Source: Clostridium sp. CAG:245 (GTDB lineage: Bacteria; Bacillota; Clostridia; TANB77; CAG-508). Taken from it: DNA of 64,000 bases. Position 1 is the stretch's first letter; each line of letters starts with the position of its first letter. Location of the stretch: positions 1,625 through 65,624 of the forward strand of contig FR880073.1 of the NCBI GenBank assembly GCA_000435175.1, written 5' to 3'. The notes below the pieces were generated by a model that saw only the letters and a list, made by a program, of their open reading frames with translations, was not told where the DNA came from and did no database searches. The position numbers and the translations under genes were made by a program. Of the stretch, positions 4,070-52,716 are shown piece by piece.

Positions 4070-4251
4070 AAAACCACCATCTTTTCTTTAGATAGAATTA
4101 TTGTATATTAATATGGGGCAAAAATCAATAAAAAGCACAAAAATGGTTGAAAAATCTTGCTACAATTTATTGCTTTTAAATTTAAAATGTAATATAATTA
4201 AATATGTATAGGAATTTAAAATAATAAAAAATAAATAAAAGGATGGAGAGT

Positions 4252-18359: not shown

Positions 18360-20168
18360 TTGAAAAATAGTTTAAAAACATTAGCTGTTTGGCTAATAAT
18401 TGGCGTAATTTTGGTGGTAGCAATATCAACAATATTAGAAAATTCAAATACAAAACTTTCATATTCAGACTTGATTGCAAAGATTGATGCCGGTCAAGTA
18501 GAAAAGATTGAGCTAGATGCAGGCGGTGCTTCTGCAACAGTAAAGCTAAAAAATGATAATATAGAGAAAAAAGTTAATGTGCCAAGTGTAGATAACTTGA
18601 TGGAAAATTTACAAGACAATATGAAATCAGCTAGCATAACAGTAACTGAAAAATCTGAGTCTGCATGGGGAATTTTCTTAGCATATTTAACTCCAATAGG
18701 AATTATAGTAATATTCTTTATTTTCTGGTTTGTATTAATGAGTGGAGCAAATAGCCAAAATGGCAATAAAACAATGACATTTGGAAAGAGCAAAGCTAGA
18801 GTATTAAACCCAACAGACAAAAACAGAGTTACATTTGATGATGTTGCTGGTGTTGATGAAGAAAAAGAAGAATTAGAAGAAATAGTAGAATTTTTAAAGA
18901 ATCCTACAAAGTTCACAGAGATGGGAGCACATATTCCAAAGGGTGTTTTATTAGTAGGTCAACCAGGAACTGGTAAAACATTACTTGCAAAAGCAGTTGC
19001 AGGCGAAGCAGGAGTTCCATTCTTCATAATAAGTGGTTCAGACTTCGTAGAAATGTTCGTTGGTGTTGGTGCATCACGTGTAAGAGATTTATTTGAAGAA
19101 GCAAAGAAAAAAGCTCCTTGTATTGTATTCATAGATGAAATTGATGCAGTTGGTCGTCAAAGAGGTGCAGGCCTTGGGGGAGGACACGATGAAAGAGAGC
19201 AAACATTAAACCAATTATTGGTTGAAATGGATGGATTTGCTGCAAACGAAGGCGTTATAGTTTTAGCAGCAACAAACAGACCTGATGTATTAGATAAAGC
19301 TTTATTAAGACCAGGAAGATTTGATAGACAAATAGTAGTCGGACTTCCAGATGTTAGAGCAAGAGAGCAAATATTAGAAGTTCATGCAAGAAAAAAGAAA
19401 TTAGCAGATGACATAGACTTAAAAATAGTTGCAAAAAATACTGCTGGATTTTCTGGTGCTGACTTAGAAAATGTATTAAATGAAGCAGCATTATTAGCAG
19501 CAAGAAGAAACTTAAAAGAAATTCATGAAAAAGAAATTGAAGATGCAATGGTTAAAGTTACAATGGGACCAGAAAAAACAACAAGAGTAAGAAGTGAAAA
19601 AGAAAAGAAGCTTGTAGCATATCACGAGGCTGGCCACGCAGTAGTAAGTAAATTCTTACCAACACAAGATGCAGTACACGAAATATCAATAGTTCCAAGA
19701 GGAATGGCTGGTGGATACACAATGTATCAACCAACAGAAGATAAATCATTTATGTCTAAAACAGAAATGATTGAACAAATAATATCACTATTAGGTGGTA
19801 GAGCTTCAGAAGAATTGATATTAGACGATATATCAACTGGTGCAAGCAATGATATTGAAAGAGCTACAAAAATTGCAAATTCAATGGTAACAAAATATGG
19901 AATGAGCCAAAGAGTAGGAACAATTACTTTGGGTTCAGACCAAAACGAAGTATTCTTAGGAAGAGATTTCGCACAGGAAAAAACATATTCTGAGGAAACT
20001 GCTGGAATAATAGATGAAGAAATGAAGAGAATTCTAGATACATGCTACAATAGTGCAAAAGAAATATTAAAAACACATGAAGACAAATTACACGCAGTAG
20101 CAAAAGTATTATTAGAAAAAGAGAAAATTACAGGAGAAGAATTCGAGGCAATATTTAATGAAGAATAG
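18360..20168 (+). CDS. ftsH: ATP-dependent zinc metalloprotease FtsH
   Basis: TTG start 7 nt after AGGAGG. Two TMs, Walker A GQPGTGKT, second region of homology [20 protein letters not shown], zinc motif HEAGHA. Confidence 0.95.
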
Positions 20169-20195
20169 TCTTGAAAAGTAAGGAAGGTAAAAAAA

Positions 20196-20537
20196 ATGGA
20201 GGCAATTGTTGTTATTGGAATATTAATATTCATAATTATAACATTGATTATGGTTGCTATAATGCAGATTAATATGGCTGGAATTGAAGTAAAAGACTTT
20301 TGGTCATTTATAAAAGCAAACGAAGAATTAGATAAACTATATCTATTCTCAAAAAAGTACAACAAAATGTCGCCACAAGAAAAAATAATTTTCTTACAGG
20401 AAACAGAAAAAATGTCTAATGCATTTGAAAAGATTCCTTCAATAATATGGGAAGATGAATATTCAAAGTATAGAGATGTAATGGACACATATAGAGATAT
20501 TAAAGTAGATAGATGGAAAGATTCATCTACAAAATAA
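20196..20537 (+). CDS. Small membrane protein (hypothetical)
   Basis: 113 aa. N-terminal TM IVVIGILIFIIITLIMVAIM. SD GGAAGG upstream, terminator downstream. Confidence 0.5.
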   Translation: MEAIVVIGILIFIIITLIMVAIMQINMAGIEVKDFWSFIKANEELDKLYLFSKKYNKMSPQEKIIFLQETEKMSNAFEKIPSIIWEDEYSKYRDVMDTYRDIKVDRWKDSSTK

Positions 20538-20539
20538 GG

Positions 20540-20575
20540 AAACGGTGTTGGTTAAAAGCCAGCACCGTTTTTTTA
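20540..20575 (+). terminator. Rho-independent terminator
   Basis: 12-bp stem aaacggtgttgg / ccagcaccgttt followed by a T-run. Confidence 0.75.
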
Positions 20576-20611
20576 TGTTTGAATATAATATATTGAATAG
20601 GAAGTGATTTT

Positions 20612-21757
20612 TTGAAGGAGATTTATTTTGACCATTCTGCAACAACTGCAGTAAAGAGAGAAGTTTTAAATGAGATGATACCATATTTTAATTTAGAGTA
20701 TGGTAATCCATCATCTTTATATTATATAGGCCGTGAGGCAAAAAGAGCTATAGAGTGTGCTAGACGAAAAGTTGCAAGAGCAATAAATTGTTGTGAAGAG
20801 GAAGTATATTTTACTTCTTGTGGAAGTGAAAGTGATAATTTAGCAATTAAAGGATTTGCATATGCAAATAGATGCAGAGGGAACCACATAATAACATCTA
20901 AAATTGAACACCCAGCGGTTTTAAATACGTGTAAAAATTTAGAGCACAAAGGTTTTAGAGTAACATATCTAAATGTCGACGAGAATGGCTTTATAGACAT
21001 TAATCAGTTAAAACGTAACATATGTAATGATACGATTTTAATTAGCATTATGATGGCAAATAATGAGCTAGGAACTATACAGAATATACAAGAAATTGGA
21101 AGAATAGCACATTGTAATAATATAGTGTTTCATACAGATGCAGTTCAAGCAGTTGGAAATATAAAAATAGATGTTCAGAGTATGAATGTAGATATGCTTT
21201 CGATGTCTGCACATAAATTTTATGGCCCAAAAGGTGTTGGAGCATTATATGTAAGAAAAGGTATAAATTTTGAAAGAATACAAGATGGTGGCCATCAAGA
21301 AAAAAATAAAAGGTCTGGAACAGAAAATGTTGCTGGAATAGTAGGATTAGGAAAAGCAATAGAGATTGCAACATACAATATAGACAGATATAATAAAAAA
21401 TTATTGGCTCTAAGACAATATTGTATATCAAGATTAATAGAGAATATTAAAGATATAAAAATAAACGGAGATTTAACAAATAGACTACCAGGAAATATAA
21501 ATGTTTCGTTTAAAGGCTGCGATTCAAGTGATATTTTAATGAAACTTGATGAAGTTGGAATATGTGCTTCTGATGGTTCTGCTTGTTCATCTGGAACTGC
21601 AACTCCGTCTCATGTATTAAGGGCTATAGGATTAGATAAAGAATGGCTAGAGGGAACAATAAGAATAACTTTAGGGGATGAAAATACAAAAGAAGATATA
21701 GATTATTTGGTAGTGAATTTAATAAAAATAACAAATGAGCTAAGAAATAAAGGATAA
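20612..21757 (+). CDS. nifS: Cysteine desulfurase (NifS/IscS family)
   Basis: IYFDHSATT N-terminus, PLP-lysine motif SAHKFYGPKG and C-terminal active-site SACSSG. Confidence 0.9.
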   Translation: MKEIYFDHSATTAVKREVLNEMIPYFNLEYGNPSSLYYIGREAKRAIECARRKVARAINCCEEEVYFTSCGSESDNLAIKGFAYANRCRGNHIITSKIEHPAVLNTCKNLEHKGFRVTYLNVDENGFIDINQLKRNICNDTILISIMMANNELGTIQNIQEIGRIAHCNNIVFHTDAVQAVGNIKIDVQSMNVDMLSMSAHKFYGPKGVGALYVRKGINFERIQDGGHQEKNKRSGTENVAGIVGLGKAIEIATYNIDRYNKKLLALRQYCISRLIENIKDIKINGDLTNRLPGNINVSFKGCDSSDILMKLDEVGICASDGSACSSGTATPSHVLRAIGLDKEWLEGTIRITLGDENTKEDIDYLVVNLIKITNELRNKG

Positions 21758-21871
21758 AATTAATATTTAAGTTTGTGGCTAAATAAAATTAAGTGGAAAA
21801 TTATATTTATAAAATACAAATAAAAAATATTATTATAGTTGATAAATAATAATCTGTAAAAATTTTCATAT

Positions 21872-21909
21872 AAAAAGATCCCCTGACTTGCAAGTGCAAG
21901 TTAGGGGAT
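21872..21909 (-). terminator. Rho-independent terminator of cassette gene 21932-22288
   Basis: ~14-bp inverted repeat atcccctgacttgca / tgcaagttaggggat. U-run when read on the minus strand. Confidence 0.7.
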
Positions 21910-21931
21910 TTAAAGGATTTTTTACTGTTTT

Positions 21932-22288
21932 TTACTTAAAGAACTCTTTCTTGAGCTCTCTGTAAATCTTTCGACCAGAAATGCGGCTGTAGCAGTGGAA
22001 TTCTGCACGCATGAAGTTTTTCCCGTCTTCTTGGTTAATAATGCTGTAATTAGACTTTATTTTGTCGTATGTTTTTGCAAACAACGGGCTTAGCTTACGC
22101 CGGATGCGCATACCAGCTCGGGAATGATTGCGTTCCTCAGATGTAATTTCTATGAGGAGCAAAATGTTCAACTTGTCCTCGGCTGGAATAAAAACATCAA
22201 GAACGTGAGGTTGGTTAACATAGAGACAAATTTCTCTTTGCACTCCTAAAAGATTTTTCCGAATTGCCAAATTCACTAAATCAGTCAT
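21932..22288 (-). CDS. Hypothetical 118-aa protein, G+C-richer cassette gene A
   Basis: Complete ORF with its own promoter and terminator. Visibly higher G+C than the flanks. C-terminal DGKNFMRAEFHCYSRISGRKIYRELKKEFF resembles the C-terminus of the neighbouring cassette protein. Confidence 0.6.
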   Translation of the reverse strand: MTDLVNLAIRKNLLGVQREICLYVNQPHVLDVFIPAEDKLNILLLIEITSEERNHSRAGMRIRRKLSPLFAKTYDKIKSNYSIINQEDGKNFMRAEFHCYSRISGRKIYRELKKEFFK

Positions 22289-22340
22289 ATTATAATCCTT
22301 TCCAATATAAAAATTACAGGCATGATGCCTCGATATATAT

Positions 22341-22369
22341 ATTATAATACATATTTACATAAAATGCAA
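22341..22369 (-). promoter_or_regulatory. Consensus-like sigma-A promoter of cassette gene A
   Basis: Minus strand TTGCAT - 17 nt (TTTATGTAAATATGTAT) - TATAAT. Palindrome AGGCATcATGCCT lies just downstream. Confidence 0.6.
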
Positions 22370-22374
22370 ATGAG

Positions 22375-22416
22375 GAAAAATAAAACCCCTGAACCACAAG
22401 TGTGATCCAAGGGTTT
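22375..22416 (-). terminator. Rho-independent terminator of cassette gene B
   Basis: On the minus strand, AACCCUUGGAUCACA / UGUGGUUCAGGGGUU pairs fully (with G-U pairs) and is followed by a U-run. Confidence 0.7.
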
Positions 22417-22429
22417 GGAGGTTTAGGAG

Positions 22430-22801
22430 TTACTTCTCATCGAAGTACTTTTTCTTTAGCTTTTGGTAAAGAGCGATGCCCTCTTCCATGTTGTACACAT
22501 GGTAGTAGAACAGCAAAAATGTTTTGCCATTGAATTTGCTTTTCAGACATTCAGTCTGACCAAGGGGAAATTTGACTAGATGCAGGTTACTGAATTTTTG
22601 ATTCAGCTCTGCAAGAGACATGTGTGTCTCTTCGTCAGTCAAACCGATCCGGAAATCGAGCAGAACTCGGTCACCATAAGAAATGTAGGGATTTTGAAGC
22701 AAAGGGCAAGAACCGCTCAAAATTACCTGCCGTTCTGAATCATTCATCTTGGATACGGAATACAATGTTTCAAAACTATTCTTTACGCTTACTTCAGCCA
22801 T
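22430..22801 (-). CDS. Hypothetical 123-aa protein, G+C-richer cassette gene B (distant paralog of gene A)
   Basis: ATG 22801 sits 7 nt after SD GGAGGG (the track's TTG at 22816 is less likely). C-terminal NGKTFLLFYYHVYNMEEGIALYQKLKKKYF aligns with gene A at about 11 of 30 identities by eye. Confidence 0.6.
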   Translation of the reverse strand: MAEVSVKNSFETLYSVSKMNDSERQVILSGSCPLLQNPYISYGDRVLLDFRIGLTDEETHMSLAELNQKFSNLHLVKFPLGQTECLKSKFNGKTFLLFYYHVYNMEEGIALYQKLKKKYFDEK

Positions 22802-22859
22802 AATAAGGCCCTCCAATGTAATATTTTATACGAGGTTTGGGTAACTCTCGATTAGGTAT

Positions 22860-22888
22860 ATTATAGCACAAATTTACATAAAATGCAA
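22860..22888 (-). promoter_or_regulatory. Consensus-like sigma-A promoter of cassette gene B
   Basis: Minus strand TTGCAT - 17 nt (TTTATGTAAATTTGTGC) - TATAAT. Nearly identical to the gene A promoter. Confidence 0.6.
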
Positions 22889-23010
22889 ATTTTAGTTCGC
22901 TATTTTCTTGATTTTTTCCTAATTTTGTTGTATTATTGTATAGTAAAAATATAGATATAAAAGTTGAAATAATATAGGGATAATATAAAATGAAAGGAAT
23001 GAACTTTTAA

Positions 23011-23265
23011 ATGGAATATAGATATAAACCACAAGGAGTATGTTCTACAGAAATAATTGTAGAAGTTGAGAATAATATTATAAAGAACCTAAAAGTAATA
23101 AATGGTTGTAACGGAAATTTGCAAGGAATTGCAAGCCTCGTAAAAGGAATGACCATTGATGATGTAATTGCAAAATTAAAAGGAATTGAATGTGGCAGAA
23201 AAGGAACTTCTTGCCCAGACCAAATTGCGATTGCTTTAGAAAAAATTAAAAAGGGAGAAATTTAG
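23011..23265 (+). CDS. TSCPD-domain protein (TIGR03905-like)
   Basis: 84 aa. GVCSTEIIVEVENNIIKNLKVINGCNGNLQGIASLVKGM...CGRKGTSCPDQIA matches the small TSCPD family pattern. Confidence 0.7.
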   Translation: MEYRYKPQGVCSTEIIVEVENNIIKNLKVINGCNGNLQGIASLVKGMTIDDVIAKLKGIECGRKGTSCPDQIAIALEKIKKGEI

Positions 23266-23274
23266 AAAAGCACT

Positions 23275-23829
23275 ATGGAACAAATATCAATTTTAGATGA
23301 CAACAAAAGAATTGAAATAAATAAACGAAAGAAAGAAGTAAAATTTGTTGCAATTGATGTTGAAACTACAGGACTTTCGCCTGTATATAATGAGCTTATT
23401 GAAATTAGTGCAATTAAGTATGAGGGTGCAAAAAAGATAGACAATTTTTCTACACTTGTAAAGCCTAAGAAAGAAGTTTCAAATATTATAACAAATTTGA
23501 CTGGAATTACTAATAAAATGTTAGAGAATGCTCCACAAATTGAAGAGGTAATGCCTAAACTTGTAAAGTTTATTGGTAATCATATTATCGTTGCACATAA
23601 TGCTAATTTTGATGTTAGCTTTTTACAAAACAATTCAAACAAGAGCTTTTCTAAAAATAAGGTTATAGATACGGTTGCACTTAGCAGAAAAATGTTGCCA
23701 AACTTGCCAAACCATAAGCTAAATACAGTAGCAAGATATATTGGAATTCAAGAAGATGGGTTTCATAGGGCAGAATTTGACTGTGAATGTTGTGCAAAAA
23801 TTTATATTAAATATCTAGAAAATATGTAA
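23275..23829 (+). CDS. DnaQ-like 3'-5' exonuclease (DNA polymerase III epsilon family)
   Basis: Exo motifs FVAIDVETTGL, VAHNANFDVSFL and H..E.D (FHRAEFDCE). Confidence 0.85.
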   Translation: MEQISILDDNKRIEINKRKKEVKFVAIDVETTGLSPVYNELIEISAIKYEGAKKIDNFSTLVKPKKEVSNIITNLTGITNKMLENAPQIEEVMPKLVKFIGNHIIVAHNANFDVSFLQNNSNKSFSKNKVIDTVALSRKMLPNLPNHKLNTVARYIGIQEDGFHRAEFDCECCAKIYIKYLENM

Positions 23830-23840
23830 GAGGAATAGTA

Positions 23841-26800
23841 ATGAATATTCTAATTAAAGAGCTTGAAAACTTGAAAAAGTTTAAAGAGTATGTATCAGAT
23901 ATAAATAAAAAAATAAGTCCGATAGTATTATCGGGCTTATCTAGCGTTGGAAAAATACAATTATTAGAGGCTACGAAAGAGTTTGCAGATAGAAACATTT
24001 GCATAGTAACTTATAATGAGTTGCAGGCTAAAAAAATATATAAAGATTTAAAATATTTTTCTGGCAATGTTGTATATTTCCCAAAGAGAGAAATAGCTTC
24101 ATATGACTACGTGGCAGAGAGTAAAGATTTGCCATATGAAAGAATAGAAACATTAAATAAAATTTTTGAACAAGAAAAATCTGCTAAAAAGAATGAAAAT
24201 AGACTAATTGTAATTACAACTATAGAAGCAATGATGCAAAAAATGATTTCGAAAGAAGAAGTGTATAAAGCATTATTAGAGTTTAAGGTTGGTAAGTGTT
24301 TCAATTTGGAAGAATTAAAGCAAAGCTTGATTCACCTTGGATATGAAAGGGCAGATATAGTTGATGGAAAAGGTCAGTTTAGTGTTAGAGGCGGAATTTT
24401 AGATATTGGAACTACTAACACACAGGGTGTAAGAATTGAGTTCTGGGGAGACGAAGTCGATTCAATTAGAAGTTTTAGCATAACTTCTCAACGTTCTAAT
24501 AAGATGATTGAAGAAGCTAGAATTTATCCATCACATGAGCTTATTGTAACAAAAAATATCGATGAAATCTGCAAACAAATTGAGACTAAAAAAGAGAATG
24601 CGAGTGAAGAAAACGCTAAAAATATAACAGAAGACATAGAGCTTATAAGAAATGGAGATTATATAAGCAAAGTCGATAAATATTTTAATGAGTTTTATGA
24701 TAAGCAATCGTCTTTTATGGAATACATTGGAGAAGATTATTTAATATGTTTAGATGATATTGAGAAAATAAATGTAAGACAAGAAAATATAATTAATGAC
24801 AATAATCAACTTATTGAAACTTTGCTAGAAAAAGATAGAATTGTTCCAGATTCTATAAAGAATATTACAAAATATGATGTGGAAAATGTGGAAAATCAGT
24901 TGATATATTTGTACGAAACAGACTTATTAAGTGATAAGAATATTACAAAATTTTCTGCAAATGTATTTAATTTTAAATACAGAGATATGCATTTTTTTAA
25001 GAGTGAATTGAACATTTTAACCACAGAAATAAAGAAAGCACTAGATGAAAATAAGAGAGTTATAGTACTTGCTGGAAATGAGGCTGGAAGCAAGAAAATT
25101 GAGGCTTTATTAGAACCAGAAGAAATAAAGTATAAATACTTAGAAAAATTAGAAGATTCACAAGAGAAAATTTATAAAAATTCAATTGAGGAATATTTTA
25201 AAAATAAAACGGTAATCATATCAAATGGAAGCCTGTCGTCTGGTTTTGAAAATTACGAGACAAATGTAATGGTAATTACGGGCGAAGATTTTATTGCGAG
25301 TGAACCGAAAAAGAAAAAGCATACAGATTCTTTCAAACAGGGAGAAAAGGTCGTTTTTGCAGATTTAAGAGCTGGAGATTATGTTGTTCACAAGACACAA
25401 GGAATAGGAATTTATATTGGTGTAAATACTATTACAACAGCAGATGGAATTACAAAAGATTATATAAAGGTTAAGTATAAAAACGATGATGTTTTGTATG
25501 TGCCAACAGATATGCTTGATAACATTAGAAAATATGTTGGTGGGGGCGATGGAGAGCCTAAACTTAATAAGCTTGGAAGCAAAGAGTGGGAAAACACTAA
25601 GGCAAGAGTAAAGAACAATTTAAAAGAAGTCGCTAGAGACTTAATTGAATTGTATGCCAGAAGACAAAAGGCTCAGGGCTTTATGTTTTCTAAAGATACG
25701 CCGTGGCAAAAACAATTTGAAGATAGTTTTCCATATCAAGAAACAGATGACCAATTAAGATGTATTGCAGAAGTGAAAAAAGATATGGAGTCGAATAAAC
25801 CAATGGATAGACTACTTTGTGGAGATGTTGGTTATGGAAAAACAGAAGTTGCAATCCGTGCAGCATTTAAGGCTGTAATGGATCAAAAGCAAGTTGCATA
25901 TTTAGTTCCAACAACAATTCTTGCAAATCAGCAGTATGAAGAGTTTAAGACAAGAATGGAAGAGTTTGCAATAAAAGTTGAATTGCTAAACAGATTTAGA
26001 ACTAAAAAAGAGCAAGATGAGGTAATAAAAAAACTAAAACTAGGAGAAGTAGATGTAGTAGTTGGAACACATAGACTTTTAAGTAAAGATGTGGAATTTA
26101 AAGACTTAGGCTTGCTAATTATAGACGAGGAACACAGATTTGGTGTAAAGGATAAAGAAAAGATAAAAAAGCTAAAAGAAAACATAGATGTACTTACAAT
26201 GACAGCAACACCAATTCCAAGAACACTGCATATGTCGATTGTTGGTGTAAGAGATATGTCTGTAATCTATGAGCCACCTCAAAACAGGAAACCTGTTCAA
26301 ACTTATGTGTTAGAGTATGATGATGAAGTTATTAAAGAAGCAATAACAAGAGAACTTGAAAGAAATGGTCAAGTATTCTATCTGTTCAATAATGTTGAAA
26401 AAATAATAAGAAAAGCAGACGAAATTTCAAAATTAGTTCCAGAGGCGAGAGTTGAATTTGCGCATGGCAAAATGACTGGAGCAGAGATTGAAAGTATAAT
26501 GCAGGACTTCATTGAGCATAAAACAGATGTACTTGTTTGTACAACAATTTTGGAATCTGGAATAGATATTCCAAATGCGAACACAATAATAGTAGAAAAT
26601 GCAGATAGACTTGGACTTGCTCAATTGTATCAGATACGTGGAAGAGTTGGCCGTTCAGACAGGCAAGGATACGCATATGTAACATATAGAAGAGATAAAC
26701 TATTATCAGAAGTTGCAGACAAGAGATTGAAAGCAATAAAAGAATTTACCGAATTTGGTTCTGGATTTAAAATTGCCATGAGAGATTTGGAAATAAGAGG

Positions 26801-28228: not shown

Positions 28229-29104
28229 CTAATTTATTTTTTTGAAAGATTTAATAATATTGCAAACTTCTTCTTCAGACATATCAACAATTGAAGCTAT
28301 TTGAGCTATTGAGAAAGTTTGATTGATAAGGTTTTTTATTATTTTTATTGCTTCCTGTTTTTGGCCATCAGATAAGCCTGTATGATAAATTGATTTTTGG
28401 TCTCTTTCGTATTTTTCACGTAAGAATGCAATTCTTTTTAATTTTTCATCTTGGCTCATTTCTTTTACTGTAACTACGGCTTTTTCTATAGATTTGTTGC
28501 TTTCCATAATCTCAGAAACCTCCTTGTCTTCAGGGTTATTAACAAACATGATCCATTGAGATTTTAAATTTTGTTTGTCCTTCATGTATGTTTCCCTTGC
28601 TTTTCTTAATTCTATTATATCTATTTCGAGTTTGTCTGTCAATTCAAGAAAATGCTTTTTATCGAAAAGTTTAAACTGAGTTTCCATCTCTTTTACGGCT
28701 TTTGTTACATCAAGGTCAAAGTCGATAATGGCTATAAGAATTATTTTCTTAGCAGAGAGGTATTTATCACCTTTATGCAATTGCATTTCATATAGTCTTG
28801 AAAAATAAAATAGAAGTCGTTCTATAAAATCATCTTGTTTCATTAATTGAACTTCTATATCAACCTTTTCTATACCATTGACTTCAGCCTCTAAGTCGAG
28901 TATTCCGAACTTGTCATCAGGTAATTCTCTATACAAATCTTTTGTATCGTTTATTTTTATGCTTTCAATTTTTTCGTTTAATAAAGCAGAAATAAAGTCT
29001 TTTGTGATTTCTTCATTTTTAGCCGAAAATAAACACTGAAAAACAAAATCGTTTTTAGGTTTAAGCAAATGGGTGTCTTTAGTATATGTTGAGTTATCAA
29101 ACAT
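28229..29104 (-). CDS. Rpn-family recombination-promoting nuclease / putative transposase (PD-(D/E)xK, YhgA-like)
   Basis: N-terminus LLKPKNDFVFQCLF...ITKDFISALL...ILDLEAEVNG..KVDIEVQ is the typical Rpn/PDDEXK_2 pattern. Confidence 0.75.
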   Translation of the reverse strand: MFDNSTYTKDTHLLKPKNDFVFQCLFSAKNEEITKDFISALLNEKIESIKINDTKDLYRELPDDKFGILDLEAEVNGIEKVDIEVQLMKQDDFIERLLFYFSRLYEMQLHKGDKYLSAKKIILIAIIDFDLDVTKAVKEMETQFKLFDKKHFLELTDKLEIDIIELRKARETYMKDKQNLKSQWIMFVNNPEDKEVSEIMESNKSIEKAVVTVKEMSQDEKLKRIAFLREKYERDQKSIYHTGLSDGQKQEAIKIIKNLINQTFSIAQIASIVDMSEEEVCNIIKSFKKIN

Positions 29105-48845: not shown

Positions 48846-50837
48846 ATGGATATAATAGGAAGAACAATAGCAAATAGATATGAAATTATAAGTAAAACTG
48901 GAGTTGGAGGAATGGCAACAGTATATGTTGCAAGAGACAAGGTTTTAAATAGAGATGTTGCTGTTAAAGTACTAAAAGATGAATTTACCACAGATGATGA
49001 ATTTGTAAAAAGATTTAATTCAGAGGCTCAAGCAGCGGCAAGTCTTACTCATGCTAACATAGTTTCAATATATGATGTTGGGAATGAAGACGGAATTTAT
49101 TATATAGTAATGGAATTGGTAAGAGGAAAAACTCTAAAACAAATAATAAACGAGGAAGGAGCACTTCCTTGGAAATGGTCTGTAAATATTGCAGGACAAA
49201 TTGCATCAGCCTTAGAAATGGCTCACAAAAACAACATTGTTCATAGAGATATAAAACCACACAATATAATAATTACAGAAGATGGAGTTGCAAAAGTAAC
49301 AGATTTTGGAATAGCAAAGGCAGTATCAAATTCAACAATAACAGCATTTGGAACAACTATTGGTTCTGTACACTATTTCTCACCAGAGCAAGCAAAAGGA
49401 GGATATACAGATGCTAAATCTGATATTTACTCTTTAGGTGTTGTAATGTACGAAATGCTTACAGGAAAAGTTCCTTTTGATGCAGATACATCAGTTTCTG
49501 TTGCATTAAAACACATGCAAGAGGATCCTGTACCACCAATGGAAATAAATCCAAACATCCCAAAGGCGGTAAATGATATAATTTTAAAAGCTATGCAAAA
49601 AGAGCCAATGGCTAGATATCAAACTGCAACAGCCATGCTAAGAGATTTAGCACAAGCCTTAAAAAATCCAGATGGAGAATTTGTTGAGAAAGAAGATTTA
49701 GACGATGGCTTAACAAGAAGAATGGATGCTATTACAGATGATATGGCGAAAAATGCTAAGAGTAGCAACAAAAAGAAGAAAAATAAAGTTGCCATATTCT
49801 TTGAAAACCATCCAAAGACAAGAGTTTTAGCAATAATAGCACTTTGCTTAATAATATTTGCAGGAAGTATAGCAATAACATCTGCAATATTAAATGCAAA
49901 TTCAGTAAAAGATGTTCAAATTCCAAACTTAGTTGGAAGGACTGAGGCAGAAGCAAAGGCAGAACTTGCAAAATACAAACTTGTATACGAAAAATCAGGA
50001 GAAGATTATAATTCTGAGGTAGAAGCTGGAAAAGTTTTTGAACAAAATCCTGTATATTCAGACAATTACAAAGTAAAAGAAAAGAGCACAGTATCTGTAA
50101 AAATAAGCAAAGGCACAGAGCAGACTACAGTTCCAAAGGTTGCTGGTATGACATATGAAGGAGCAGTTGCTGCATTAGAAAAGAATAAATTAAAAGCAGA
50201 AAAAATAGAAGAAACAAGTAAAACAATAAAAGAAGGAATTGTAATTAGCCAAGAAACAGATGCAAACACAACAGCAAATGCTGGAGATACAGTAAAAATA
50301 CATGTAAGCATCGGAACAGGTGTAAACCAAGTAGTAATGCCAAATGTATTAGGAAAAACAGAAGCAGATGCAAAATCAGCATTAGAAGCCAAAAACTTAG
50401 TAGTAAAGGTAGAATACAAAGAAAACACAGACAAAGAAAATGGAGAAGTATTAGAGCAAAGCATAAAATCTGGTGAAAACATAGACGAAGGAACAGAAGT
50501 AACAATTACAGTAAACAAATTAGCAGAAATGAAAGAAGCAACAATAACAATAAACGTAAAATCGCTTACAGGTGGTTACGAGGTACCAGATAAAGAAAAC
50601 ACAAACACAACAAATACAACAGGTTCATCAAGTTCGACAACAGTAAAGGAAAAGAAACTTACAGTAAAAGTTGGAGAAGACAAAGTATATGACAAGAAAG
50701 TAGACTTAAATTCAACAAATATTCAAACAAAAATAAGTGGAAAAGGCACAGTAACAGTAAAAGTATATGTAGATGACATATTAAAATCACAAAAAGACAT
50801 AAACCTAAACACAACAAGTTCATATACATTTGAATAA
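48846..50837 (+). CDS. prkC: Ser/Thr kinase PrkC/PknB with extracellular PASTA repeats
   Basis: Kinase motifs GVGGMATVY, VAVK, HRDIKPHN, DFG and SPEQ. One TM, then three PASTA-like repeats (VQIPNLVGRTEAEA, TTVPKVAGMTYEGA, VVMPNVLGKTEADA). Confidence 0.93.
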   Translation: MDIIGRTIANRYEIISKTGVGGMATVYVARDKVLNRDVAVKVLKDEFTTDDEFVKRFNSEAQAAASLTHANIVSIYDVGNEDGIYYIVMELVRGKTLKQIINEEGALPWKWSVNIAGQIASALEMAHKNNIVHRDIKPHNIIITEDGVAKVTDFGIAKAVSNSTITAFGTTIGSVHYFSPEQAKGGYTDAKSDIYSLGVVMYEMLTGKVPFDADTSVSVALKHMQEDPVPPMEINPNIPKAVNDIILKAMQKEPMARYQTATAMLRDLAQALKNPDGEFVEKEDLDDGLTRRMDAITDDMAKNAKSSNKKKKNKVAIFFENHPKTRVLAIIALCLIIFAGSIAITSAILNANSVKDVQIPNLVGRTEAEAKAELAKYKLVYEKSGEDYNSEVEAGKVFEQNPVYSDNYKVKEKSTVSVKISKGTEQTTVPKVAGMTYEGAVAALEKNKLKAEKIEETSKTIKEGIVISQETDANTTANAGDTVKIHVSIGTGVNQVVMPNVLGKTEADAKSALEAKNLVVKVEYKENTDKENGEVLEQSIKSGENIDEGTEVTITVNKLAEMKEATITINVKSLTGGYEVPDKENTNTTNTTGSSSSTTVKEKKLTVKVGEDKVYDKKVDLNSTNIQTKISGKGTVTVKVYVDDILKSQKDINLNTTSSYTFE

Positions 50838-50845
50838 AGTACAAA

Positions 50846-50868
50846 TTGGGGACGGAGCAAAAAATGCA
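50846..50868 (+). repeat. Left copy of an imperfect ~22-nt direct repeat flanking the lipoprotein cassette
   Basis: TTGGGGACGGAGCAAAAAATGCA here versus TTGGGGACGGAGTAAAAATGTA at 51660-51681. The left copy lies within the hairpin after prkC. Confidence 0.7.
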
Positions 50869-50907
50869 CGTCTCCAATTTGCAAAATACAGGAGTAGTCA
50901 TATAAAC

Positions 50908-50936
50908 TTGACATAATTATAAGAAAAAGCTATAAT
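50908..50936 (+). promoter_or_regulatory. Consensus sigma-A promoter of the lipoprotein cassette
   Basis: TTGACA - 17 nt - TATAAT exactly. Hairpin aaaacgt/acgtttt lies just downstream. Confidence 0.6.
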
Positions 50937-51064
50937 ATATATAGTAAAAACGTTAAATACGTTTTTTTGCAATATAATTCCTTTCGCAATGCATCCTAAT
51001 GGGTGTTTTATATAAACGTACGAATTCACAATATTGGAACAACAAGAAAGGAAAGAAAATTCCC

Positions 51065-51517
51065 ATGAAAAGTAGTTTTAGAAAAATGTTCGGTATGATC
51101 GTTATTTGTGCCATTCTGTTGGTCGCTTGTGGCCGGAAGGATCCGTTAAATCGGCAAGCTGCTTACTTCACGATCACAGAAGGAAGTAGTGGAGAGGTCT
51201 ATGGTGTGAGAGAAACTTATCGTGCAAATACAACGGTTACTCGCAACCAGTTCCTGGACCAGGACGAAGATGTGGTCAAAGCATTAAAAGACTACATTGA
51301 AAATAGACTCCCGAAAGAAAAAGTAGGTATCCTTTTATATGAGGAGATGCCTCAGGAAGATGGCTATGAGTTAACAGTATTTTATCAGAGTTTGGTGGCT
51401 AAGGAACATGACAAAGACATTGATTGCGACATTGACAAGTGTTATTGTTTAACAATATCGGTAAACGAAAATGAAAATGTGGAAATTTTCAAGCTGTTGT
51501 CTTTGGCAGCGAAGTAA
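51065..51517 (+). CDS. Lipoprotein (hypothetical), G+C-richer than its surroundings
   Basis: MKSSFRKMFGMIVICAILLVAC has a lipobox (LVAC) and follows SD AAAGGAAAG. Codon usage and G+C are visibly different from neighbouring genes. Confidence 0.65.
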   Translation: MKSSFRKMFGMIVICAILLVACGRKDPLNRQAAYFTITEGSSGEVYGVRETYRANTTVTRNQFLDQDEDVVKALKDYIENRLPKEKVGILLYEEMPQEDGYELTVFYQSLVAKEHDKDIDCDIDKCYCLTISVNENENVEIFKLLSLAAK

Positions 51518-51605
51518 TGAGCTAACGTAAGTTAGACTTGTGCGAAAGGTCAGAACAAAGCCTGTTATTGTGAGAACACTACAGTAAATAGGCAAAGTAA
51601 AGAAA

Positions 51606-51648
51606 GGTTAACTGGGATTCTTTGATTAAGAGTCCTAGTTGACCTTTT
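51606..51648 (+). terminator. Rho-independent terminator of the lipoprotein cassette
   Basis: 17-bp stem ggttaactgggattctt / aagagtcctagttgacc followed by TTTT. Confidence 0.75.
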
Positions 51649-51659
51649 ATATGTACATT

Positions 51660-51681
51660 TTGGGGACGGAGTAAAAATGTA
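51660..51681 (+). repeat. Right copy of the direct repeat flanking the lipoprotein cassette
   Basis: TTGGGGACGGAGTAAAAATGTA. The first 12 nt are identical to the left copy. Confidence 0.7.
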
Positions 51682-51741: not shown

Positions 51742-51770
51742 ATAGATGTAAGTTAAATTTGGAGGAAAAA

Positions 51771-52067
51771 ATGCCAGAAGAATTGAAAAAATATTTTTGG
51801 GACACTGATTTTCAAAAGTTAGATATAGAAAAGAATAAGAGATATATAATTGCAAGACTATATTGTTATGGTGATCTAAGAGCGATAAAATGGGTAAAAG
51901 AAACATATAGTAAAGTCGATATAGAAGATACGGCAAGAAACTGTAGAAATTTAAAGCCGATTGTTGCTAATTACCTTAGACAACAGTATAACTTAAAAAA
52001 GGAAGAGATGGCTTATTATAGAGCTATTATGGCAATGAATTATGATTTTTGGAGAGGAAATTGCTAG
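51771..52067 (+). CDS. DUF6922-like small protein (putative antitoxin/partner of the AbiEii-like NTase)
   Basis: 98 aa with SD GGAGG. KKYFWDTDFQKLDIEKNKRYIIARLYCYGDLRAIKWVKETY matches the pattern I associate with DUF6922. Its stop is 1 nt before the next ATG. Confidence 0.55.
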   Translation: MPEELKKYFWDTDFQKLDIEKNKRYIIARLYCYGDLRAIKWVKETYSKVDIEDTARNCRNLKPIVANYLRQQYNLKKEEMAYYRAIMAMNYDFWRGNC

Positions 52068-52068
52068 A

Positions 52069-52716
52069 ATGTATTGGAGTATATTAGATAATAAAAGAAT
52101 TGAATTATTAAGAAAAATTGTAAAAACTATAAGTTTAAATAATTATTATATGGTAGGAGGAACAGCATTATCTTTACAATTAAATTTAAGAGAATCATTT
52201 GACTTTGATTTCTGCGTTCCTGACATGTTTAATAGTGATGTATTGATTAGCGAATTAAAAAGTATTGGAAATACTGAAGTAAAGCAAAATCAAAAAGGAA
52301 CTATTGACGTTTTACTAGATGGAGTGCAGGTTAGTTTCTTCTTTTATCAAAACAATTTGGTAGAAAATATCGTGAAGAATGATGAAATACCTAATTTGAG
52401 AATGGCTAGTATTTTAGACATAGCGGCAATGAAAGTAGCCGCTATAGGTGGAAGAGGAGCTAAAAAGGATTTTTTTGATTTATATAATATAATGAAAAAA
52501 TGTAATATTGATACAGAAAAATTAGCTAGTGCTGTAATAAAGAAATTTGGAACAAACGTAAATTATGTGAATATGATTATGGGATTAAGCTATTTTGAAG
52601 ATGCAGAAAGTGAAGAATTACCTAAAACATTTGTAGAATATGATTGGAACACTATAAAGAAATACTTTATAGATATTCAACCTAAATTTCAAATGGCATT
52701 AGAAAAATATTTGTAG
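52069..52716 (+). CDS. Nucleotidyltransferase, AbiEii/AbiGii toxin family-like
   Basis: Pol-beta NTase signature GGTALSLQLNLRESFDFDF. Downstream DIAAMKVAAIGGRGAKKDFFDLY is typical of AbiEii/DUF1814 proteins. Confidence 0.65.
   Translation: MYWSILDNKRIELLRKIVKTISLNNYYMVGGTALSLQLNLRESFDFDFCVPDMFNSDVLISELKSIGNTEVKQNQKGTIDVLLDGVQVSFFFYQNNLVENIVKNDEIPNLRMASILDIAAMKVAAIGGRGAKKDFFDLYNIMKKCNIDTEKLASAVIKKFGTNVNYVNMIMGLSYFEDAESEELPKTFVEYDWNTIKKYFIDIQPKFQMALEKYL

Follow-up and report, generated by a model that had tools for sequence, protein, structure and literature searches.

Moron-like single-gene units of a small protein family, exchanged as alleles at a fixed chromosomal slot of uncultured gut Clostridia

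The window analyzed here, a stretch of 64,000 nucleotides of contig FR880073.1 from Clostridium sp. CAG:245, has a G+C content of about 30% and looks like a Clostridia chromosome. We describe two adjacent minus-strand genes in it, A and B, and the protein family that they represent, which we call X. The surrounding plus-strand genes are tilS, ftsH, a gene for a 113-aa protein, a nifS-like cysteine desulfurase gene (20612–21757, plus strand; Pfam Aminotran_5, E = 1e-88), a TSCPD-domain gene (23011–23265, plus strand; Pfam TSCPD, E = 1.5e-28), a DEDDh exonuclease gene and mfd. The A–B pair occupies the slot between nifS, its right flank, and the TSCPD gene, its left flank, which is divergent from B. 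A and B are the sole minus-strand genes between positions 4243 and 28187; the plus strand is probably the leading one, as judged by GC skew, and since the pair opposes the run of genes around it, its transcription is probably head-on to replication.

Each of the two genes appears to be an autonomous, moron-like transcription unit with a predicted promoter box, 5'-proximal stem-loop, Shine-Dalgarno site and intrinsic terminator. Gene A (21932–22288, minus strand) encodes 118 amino acids with a pI of 9.7 and has a G+C content at third codon positions (GC3) of 0.445; its protein carries the A-type motif NHSRAGMRIRRKLSP. The promoter box of A, TTGCAT-17-TATAAT, which was found by motif search and repeat analysis, lies at 22341–22369, followed by the leader hairpin AGGCATCATGCCT at 22318–22330, which was found by folding, and by the Shine-Dalgarno site GGAAAGGA at 22296–22303. 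The terminator of A at 21872–21907 has its stem at 21880–21907 (RNA fold of -20.4 kcal/mol) and ends in the T-run UCUUUUUAU. Gene B (22430–22801, minus strand; 123 aa, pI 6.8, GC3 0.476) is arranged in the same way, with a promoter box of the extended -10 type, TGTGCTATAAT, identified by the same two analyses at 22860–22888, a leader hairpin CGAGAG...CCTCG at 22831–22850 (-5.0 kcal/mol; 3% of shuffles fold as well), a Shine-Dalgarno site GGAGGG at 22809–22814, and a terminator with a 15-bp stem and a T-run at 22373–22416 (-21.4 kcal/mol), which abuts the promoter of A. All these signals are on the minus strand.

The 64 kb contain exactly two copies of the 29-nt box, TTGCATTTTATGTAAAT(A/T)TGT..TATAAT, where none is expected. 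The repeat lengthens to 34 nt at 91% identity between A and B, and repeat analysis found nothing else common to the two units. In both boxes the -10 hexamer is perfect, with the extended -10 motif TRTGn in B, and the -35 element is weak (3–4 of 6 matches). A preliminary description of this DNA had reported separate terminators for the two genes, a shared promoter stretch of about 29 nt and a short palindrome in each 5' untranslated region, all of which we recovered; it had also called the promoters near-consensus, which holds for the -10 hexamer but not for the -35 element. Flanking target-site repeats were considered and dropped, the sole candidate being a 20-nt AT-rich direct repeat of 85% identity (21856–21875 and 22943–22962) that brackets the A–B pair and may be due to chance. 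A CodY-like operator in the spacer of the promoter was entertained only as an idea and set aside.

The stem-loops of A and B begin about 8–9 nt past the -10 hexamer, which places them within a few nucleotides of where the mRNA is predicted to start. A hairpin is present at this place, 7–11 nt past the -10, in nine of nine distinct leaders, with a different sequence in each, and some of the stem changes are compensatory (CGAG/CTCG, CGGG/CCCG, CGTG/CACG). The summed energy of the leader hairpins is -53.1 kcal/mol versus -17.2 ± 4.9 kcal/mol for shuffled sequences; the case for them rests on this joint test, the hairpins being weak in some alleles when the whole leader is folded. In B. subtilis, a stem-loop near the 5' end is the classic protection of Firmicute mRNAs from 5'-end-dependent decay. 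The leader hairpins of the X genes may likewise stabilize the mRNA, and the X proteins would then be abundant.

Calculation bears out the earlier impression that the coding regions are richer in G+C than their AT-rich flanks. The excess is limited to the coding sequences (CDS; G+C 0.40 versus 0.30 for the window), and the GC3 values of A and B lie far above the mean of 0.195 (standard deviation 0.038) for the 48 other open reading frames (ORFs), with z = 6.6 and 7.5, respectively. Pooled over the X alleles, the third positions are A.22, C.27, G.23 and T.29, in comparison with A.49, C.09, G.09 and T.33 in host genes, while the leaders remain AT-rich though they are transcribed. Translational optimization was ruled out as the source of the high GC3, since the X genes use codons that the host almost never uses (CGG, CGC, CTC, CCC, TCC). 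All allele classes, including a third subtype S, have GC3 of 0.38–0.65, save one A class at 0.28. The latter is a P0071-like A allele, found at L045:321-2000 and on L043.

For the polymorphisms within allele classes, with the minor allele taken as derived, third-position changes from G or C to A or T and in the opposite direction number 8 versus 9 in A and 18 versus 16 in B. The implied equilibrium GC3 of 0.45–0.47 equals the present value of the X genes; the flanks imply 0.28–0.34. The balanced counts reject a recent import that is decaying towards host composition. Together with the lack of a donor pool in the collections described below, this argues against reading the G+C excess as the waning mark of a recent import. 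The excess could stem from selection acting on the mRNA, from a recombination hot spot with biased gene conversion, or from flux with an unsampled phage pool, and the stable, near-uniform third positions in a 30% G+C genome provide a test case for mRNA selection, biased gene conversion and gene flow.

A and B are 25% identical in amino acid sequence (BLASTP E = 1e-7), and AlphaFold2 gives both the same order of elements: three strands, a short helix, a helix, two strands and a long C-terminal helix (pLDDT 76 for A; pLDDT 87.5 and pTM 0.81 for B). They are paralogs with the same predicted fold, in agreement with the weak similarity noted at first. Neither A and B nor 27 members of X were assigned to a family by Pfam, NCBIfam, PHROGs or PADLOC. 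With PADLOC a single member had a chance-level match (E = 0.014), and membership in a known PADLOC anti-phage defense system was rejected. A profile search against the sequences of the PDB gave no match, and Foldseek searches (model A against PDB and BFVD, model B against PDB) gave nothing significant, the best matches having E = 0.017–0.06 and TM scores of at most 0.48. The statement that the proteins match no recognized family therefore stands. By its distribution, X is a very small, lineage-restricted new protein family of uncultured gut Clostridia with about 30% G+C, and it offers a confident model (pLDDT 87.5) with no match among solved structures.

Few columns are conserved across the family; these are mostly hydrophobic or structural residues, and the remainder varies strongly. 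Since conserved polar columns are few and some B types have another residue in place of the YHxY histidine, a binding protein fits better than an enzyme. The X proteins may thus act by binding, as immunity-type proteins, sponges or inhibitors, and not as enzymes. A-type proteins are basic (pI 8.8–9.7) and share the invariant motif NHSR(A/P)(G/S)(L/M)RIRRKLSP; B-type proteins are mostly near neutral and lack this motif.

Among 1.84 billion representative proteins, which were searched exhaustively with a profile, X forms only 20 clusters. In a set of 185,579 species genomes, X occurs in two, both of them metagenome-assembled genomes of an "uncultured Clostridia bacterium" from Hadza gut samples. 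No match to A or B was found by TBLASTN in 50,697 phage and 72,556 plasmid records, and a scan of IMG/VR with the A-type profile, the B-type profile and the box found none. Every traceable context of X is the same slot, TSCPD | X | nifS. Relatives whose flanks are about 79–82% identical have one X gene, of subtype S; most loci have two genes and one contig has three. On that contig the three cassettes stand in a row in the order B, B, A (L045:321-2000). Two further loci differ in content. In a relative further removed, two small non-X genes of 98 and 111 aa, one of them with a box, take up the nifS|TSCPD slot (L102:3548-4669), and the exonuclease gene is missing there. A short G+C-richer contig (L015:1-1154) has at least three tandem single-gene units with TTGCATTTTT...TATAAT promoters, CTGAAC..GTTCAG leader hairpins and terminators; one of them is an S-type X gene, and the other two proteins (104 and more than 69 aa) look like paralogs of another small family.

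These data bear on the proposal of the preliminary description that this genome recently took up the two genes from a donor richer in G+C, at a site after nifS. Their GC3 of 0.45–0.48 versus 0.195, the codons foreign to the host and the autonomy of each gene, with an orientation against its neighbors, agree with such an event. However, comparison of the nifS–TSCPD junction shows a gene of the same family in the slot of every traced relative, as a single copy where the flanks are only about 79–82% identical, an outcome that the preliminary description had itself named as a refutation, and neither a donor in the protein, genome, phage, plasmid and viral collections nor any decay of GC3 toward A+T was detected (8/9 and 18/16, see above). 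We regard recent insertion as very improbable and largely refuted. The presence of the same family in the slot of all traced relatives, with a single copy in the distant ones, indicates instead that the pair is an old tandem duplication at a fixed locus.

Within the species, the flanks are about 99% identical and the segment 21700–22900 only 85–94%, with sharp edges. The clearest case is locus L008: with 96–97% identity in the flanks, DNA-level homology to the window is lost between 22849 and 21725 and resumes in the last codons of nifS, so that the segment at 21725–22850, which coincides with the within-species peak of divergence, has no counterpart at the DNA level. The last 30 nt or so of nifS fall within the replaceable segment, and the C-terminal 20 or so amino acids differ in L008. 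Across the compared loci, the exonuclease and TSCPD flank is 95–99% identical and nifS 89–99%. In contrast, the A alleles form at least five classes that are 40–47% identical (59% for one pair), and the B alleles at least five classes that are mostly 31–39% identical.

The synonymous divergence (dS) within a class is 0.29–0.39 versus 0.03–0.06 in the flanks, a difference of about 10 times, and it is saturated between classes. The ratio of non-synonymous to synonymous rates (dN/dS) between X alleles is 0.14–0.27 (0.23–0.27 for A and 0.14–0.27 for B), which points to purifying selection within classes. One could suspect that the ORFs are spurious and that the G+C-rich transcripts are structured non-coding RNAs, since G+C-rich islands in AT-rich genomes often are RNA genes and each unit has its own promoter and terminator. 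We reject this: the dN/dS values, protein homology between alleles that cannot be aligned as DNA (profile E-values down to 1e-24) and the confident AlphaFold2 model speak for proteins, and Rfam gave only chance-level matches over positions 20000–25000.

The alleles are distributed as mosaics. In loci L027 and L028, B is identical (100%) and A is only 59% identical; the nucleotide identity stays at 100% as far as the loop of A's leader hairpin, falls to 45–60% over leader and CDS, and is back at 100% about 40 nt past the stop codon of A. Loci L008 and L025 show the reverse pattern, for B. Locus L007 has more distant flanks yet carries alleles of the classes seen in the window. These step-like mosaics and the independent reassortment of A and B require replacement of units of about 0.4 kb. 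Thus, judging from the aligned loci, leader plus CDS (about 0.4 kb) behaves as the exchangeable allele, with break points in the promoter/leader and the terminator/flank. Two proteins, P0008 and P0089, join a B-type N-terminus to an A-type C-terminus in two allele backgrounds, which suggests unequal recombination between the paralogs, and one strain has a frameshifted B (L002:5487-5864).

The low dN/dS, combined with a dS about 10 times that of the flanks, indicates that old alleles are being swapped. The preliminary description was right that these are single-gene cassettes of deviant composition, and its expectation of exchange between genomes is borne out by the clean swaps of L027/L028 and L008/L025; what it took for fast-diverging ORFs would be such old alleles rather than products of fast adaptive evolution. 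Ordinary homologous recombination could use the conserved promoter and terminator as its arms of homology, and the old alleles may be maintained by balancing or frequency-dependent selection. Through the exchange of units of about 0.4 kb between a conserved promoter and terminator, near-identical genomes come to carry trans-specific allele classes.

Alternatively, strong head-on transcription, possibly coupled to Mfd, could raise the local mutation rate and produce the divergence with no exchange of alleles. The position of A and B as the only minus-strand genes in 4243–28187, opposite to the probable leading strand, agrees with this, as do the roughly tenfold dS and the near-uniform third positions. 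Local hypermutation would nevertheless leave the steps of L027/L028 (100, 45–60 and 100%) and the A/B reassortment unaccounted for, both of which need replacement, as well as the closer alleles of L007 within more distant flanks. Under it the transcribed leaders should not have stayed AT-rich, nor should one A class have a GC3 of only 0.28. The head-on effects reported in B. subtilis work are only few-fold, and we consider this alternative quite unlikely.

The preliminary description had also proposed to look for the promoter box in metagenomes. JGI metagenome contigs were scanned for exact matches to TTGCWTTTTATGTAAATNNNTNNTATAAT, a pattern that fixes 23 positions, which gave 108 boxes on 93 contigs. 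Forty six of the 108 boxes drive X genes, and the rest drive about 45 other, unrelated small genes. GC3 is at least 0.36 in 24 of the 48 listed non-X box genes, on contigs of 0.25–0.33 G+C; several are isolated GC3-rich single genes amid AT-rich core genes, often with a leader hairpin. The unrelated cassettes have nothing in common outside the 29 nt. Loci L065 and L078 carry orthologs of the 113-aa membrane protein of the window (20196–20537) with a box promoter behind a terminator; in the window itself this gene lies 28 nt past ftsH and has no box.

One of the box genes (L092:1432-1921, minus strand; 129 aa, GC3 0.53) matches the Pfam family Tad4, "Type I Thoeris inhibitor" (PF25186, E = 6.7e-32), and has homologs of 47–51% identity in large Bacillus phages. 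It has a leader hairpin and adjoins an AT-rich histidine-kinase gene on an AT-rich contig that looks chromosomal. The phage protein Tad4 is described as binding to ThsB and blocking the TIR active site of the latter (PMC13402655; also 10.1101/2025.06.06.658234). Three further box genes match two more PHROG families of unknown function, and some of the box-gene contexts are prophage-like. The sharing of the box with a Tad4 anti-Thoeris homolog and with proteins of phage families is what links X to a role in conflict, an association by promoter. The X proteins may act in conflict with phages or competitors, possibly as a pair of a basic A and a near-neutral B.

The reading that we favor, and hold to be on balance probable from the sequence data at hand, is that the X units are moron-like chromosomal cassettes that encode abundant binding proteins in genetic conflict. 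Its architecture and evolutionary mechanism are well supported; the functional assignment, made from promoter sharing and the pattern of variation, is moderately likely. The first impression of conflict or anti-defense genes stays the most likely guess for X; of the box cassettes, one is a Tad4 homolog and others belong to phage families.

Several observations weigh against this reading. About half of the box-driven genes are of ordinary composition, and one is an ordinary host gene, the ortholog of the 113-aa gene. The ORFs downstream of the boxes were chosen by a heuristic, and the invariance of the box results partly from the selection of hits by a pattern with 23 fixed positions. The link to Tad4 consists of a shared promoter on other contigs, and the confident model of B resembles no solved structure, so that the fold offers no functional hint. 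X is absent from the phage, plasmid and viral collections searched; it is fixed in its lineage and under purifying selection, which would fit a lineage-specific cellular factor as well.

One such factor would be a cellular regulator of a box regulon, in which the basic helix HSRxxLRIRRKLSP of A-type proteins binds the DNA of the box or the leader RNA and controls its own gene and the other box cassettes. In all examined loci with a gene pair, both genes retain the box, which has one or two substitutions in a few alleles, and the conservation of the 17 nt upstream of the -10 region goes well past the needs of an extended -10 promoter, also before unrelated genes. The ATGTAAAT portion of the box is missing where only single-copy S-type genes occur, and the A-type motif does not vary between classes whose identity is otherwise 40–47%, in proteins that are basic (see above). 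This co-occurrence of motif and box may, however, only mirror shared ancestry, and B has no motif. The domain, profile and Foldseek searches detected no known DNA- or RNA-binding fold or domain in X, and hypervariability is unusual for a regulator. We therefore think it unlikely that X regulates the box genes.

We are equally hesitant about a role of the X proteins as orphan immunity proteins against the toxins of competitors, unrelated to phages. Gut bacteria reportedly carry orphan immunity genes. The X proteins are of small size, cytoplasmic and hypervariable, and probably abundant; most of their conserved residues are structural, and they show allelic diversity and duplication. Yet immunity genes are usually patchy and X is fixed in one slot, the surroundings contain neither a toxin gene nor a recombinase or known Imm domain, and those promoter-sharing cassettes that can be identified are of the phage type. 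This explanation, too, seems improbable.

A bolder extension of the favored reading is a recombinase-free, promoter-anchored cassette system. In it, small ORFs of balanced G+C would carry the 29-nt promoter and a terminator as a tag, and this tag would double as the portable homology arm for their exchange into chromosomal slots. The result would be a bank of counter-defense or immunity proteins (Tad4-like proteins, several PHROG families and X, the most widespread cargo, with an unseen fold), and A-type X proteins may read the box. We put this forward as a speculation of rather low probability. In practical terms the box provides a handle for finding conflict genes in uncultured gut bacteria by shared promoter, one box gene already being a Tad4-type Thoeris inhibitor.

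The window contains other accessory units. A third G+C-rich single-gene unit at 50839–51677 includes a gene (51065–51517, plus strand) for a 150-aa lipoprotein with the lipobox LVAC|G; its GC3 is 0.42 (z = 5.7), a TTGACA-17-TATAAT promoter of its own and a leader hairpin are present, and the unit is flanked by a 25-nt direct repeat of 88% identity (50839–50863 and 51653–51677). An identical lipoprotein is found in the same place on many contigs. Next to it lies a DUF6922 and AbiEii gene pair, an AbiE-type abortive-infection or toxin-antitoxin module (51759–52716, plus strand). Both lie between the PASTA kinase gene (48846–50837) and rsgA, which are usually adjacent in Firmicutes, and the interrupted site may therefore be a small accessory hot spot. 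A PDDEXK_2 gene of the YhgA/Rpn-like nuclease/transposase family lies 5 kb from the X locus (28229–29104, minus strand).

We compared the X units with known systems. A toxin-antitoxin pair was rejected: A and B are separately transcribed from their own signals and are paralogs with the same fold, relatives have a single copy, and no toxin or antitoxin domain is present. There is no context for a polymorphic-toxin immunity protein either, as no toxin gene is adjacent and no Imm or SUKH-type domain was found. The target of a diversity-generating retroelement was also rejected, with no repeat of the CDS inside or nearby, differences across the whole CDS, a low dN/dS and no reverse transcriptase within ±6 kb.

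Integron cassettes and sedentary chromosomal integrons resemble the X units in that small, exchangeable and mostly unknown ORFs form arrays, variable in length, at one fixed site of the chromosome. Integron cassettes are usually promoterless and expressed from Pc, while each X unit has its own promoter and terminator, and the exchange of X looks like homologous recombination via conserved regulatory DNA. No recombinase or integrase was found within ±6 kb, and no attC-like repeat is shared by the A and B units. With islands of orphan immunity genes, X has in common the occurrence in gut bacteria, small and diverse binding proteins, deviant composition and arrays with conserved intergenic DNA; it differs in having neither a recombinase nor a recognizable immunity domain at the locus, and in the presence of one family in one slot instead of mixed arrays.

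Hypervariable loci swapped through conserved flanks include the "minimal mobile elements" of Neisseria and the pneumococcal pherotype loci. They show the same deep divergence of alleles in near-identical backgrounds; their break points likewise lie in conserved flanks, and their alleles disagree with the genome tree. In X, however, the unit is as small as one leader and CDS, and the promoter that would act as homology arm also drives unrelated cassettes elsewhere. The latter feature recalls mobile promoters, in which the same promoter sequence is reportedly found before non-homologous genes; the box differs in that only 29 nt are shared and in being tied to a unit design with leader hairpin, terminator and an often G+C-rich CDS.

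Tad4 (PF25186) and other small phage anti-defense proteins are small, single-domain and probably abundant, as are the X proteins, and the Tad4 homolog of L092 has the identical 29-nt box and the same layout of a GC3-rich single gene. X has no sequence or fold similarity to Tad4 or to solved anti-defense proteins (none of the 27 X members matched the Tad4 profile of Pfam) and was not found in phages.

The closest concept is that of the phage moron, a single gene that brings its own promoter and its own terminator, is deviant in GC content, forms an independent unit between conserved genes and often carries host-benefit or conflict genes as its cargo (PMC3594210). Both A and B possess a promoter and a terminator of their own and deviate in GC3 by the z values given above. 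Unlike morons, they are flanked by core bacterial genes (nifS, TSCPD, DEDDh exonuclease, mfd) rather than phage genes, occupy a fixed multi-allelic slot rather than being an extra in one genome, and have a composition at equilibrium.

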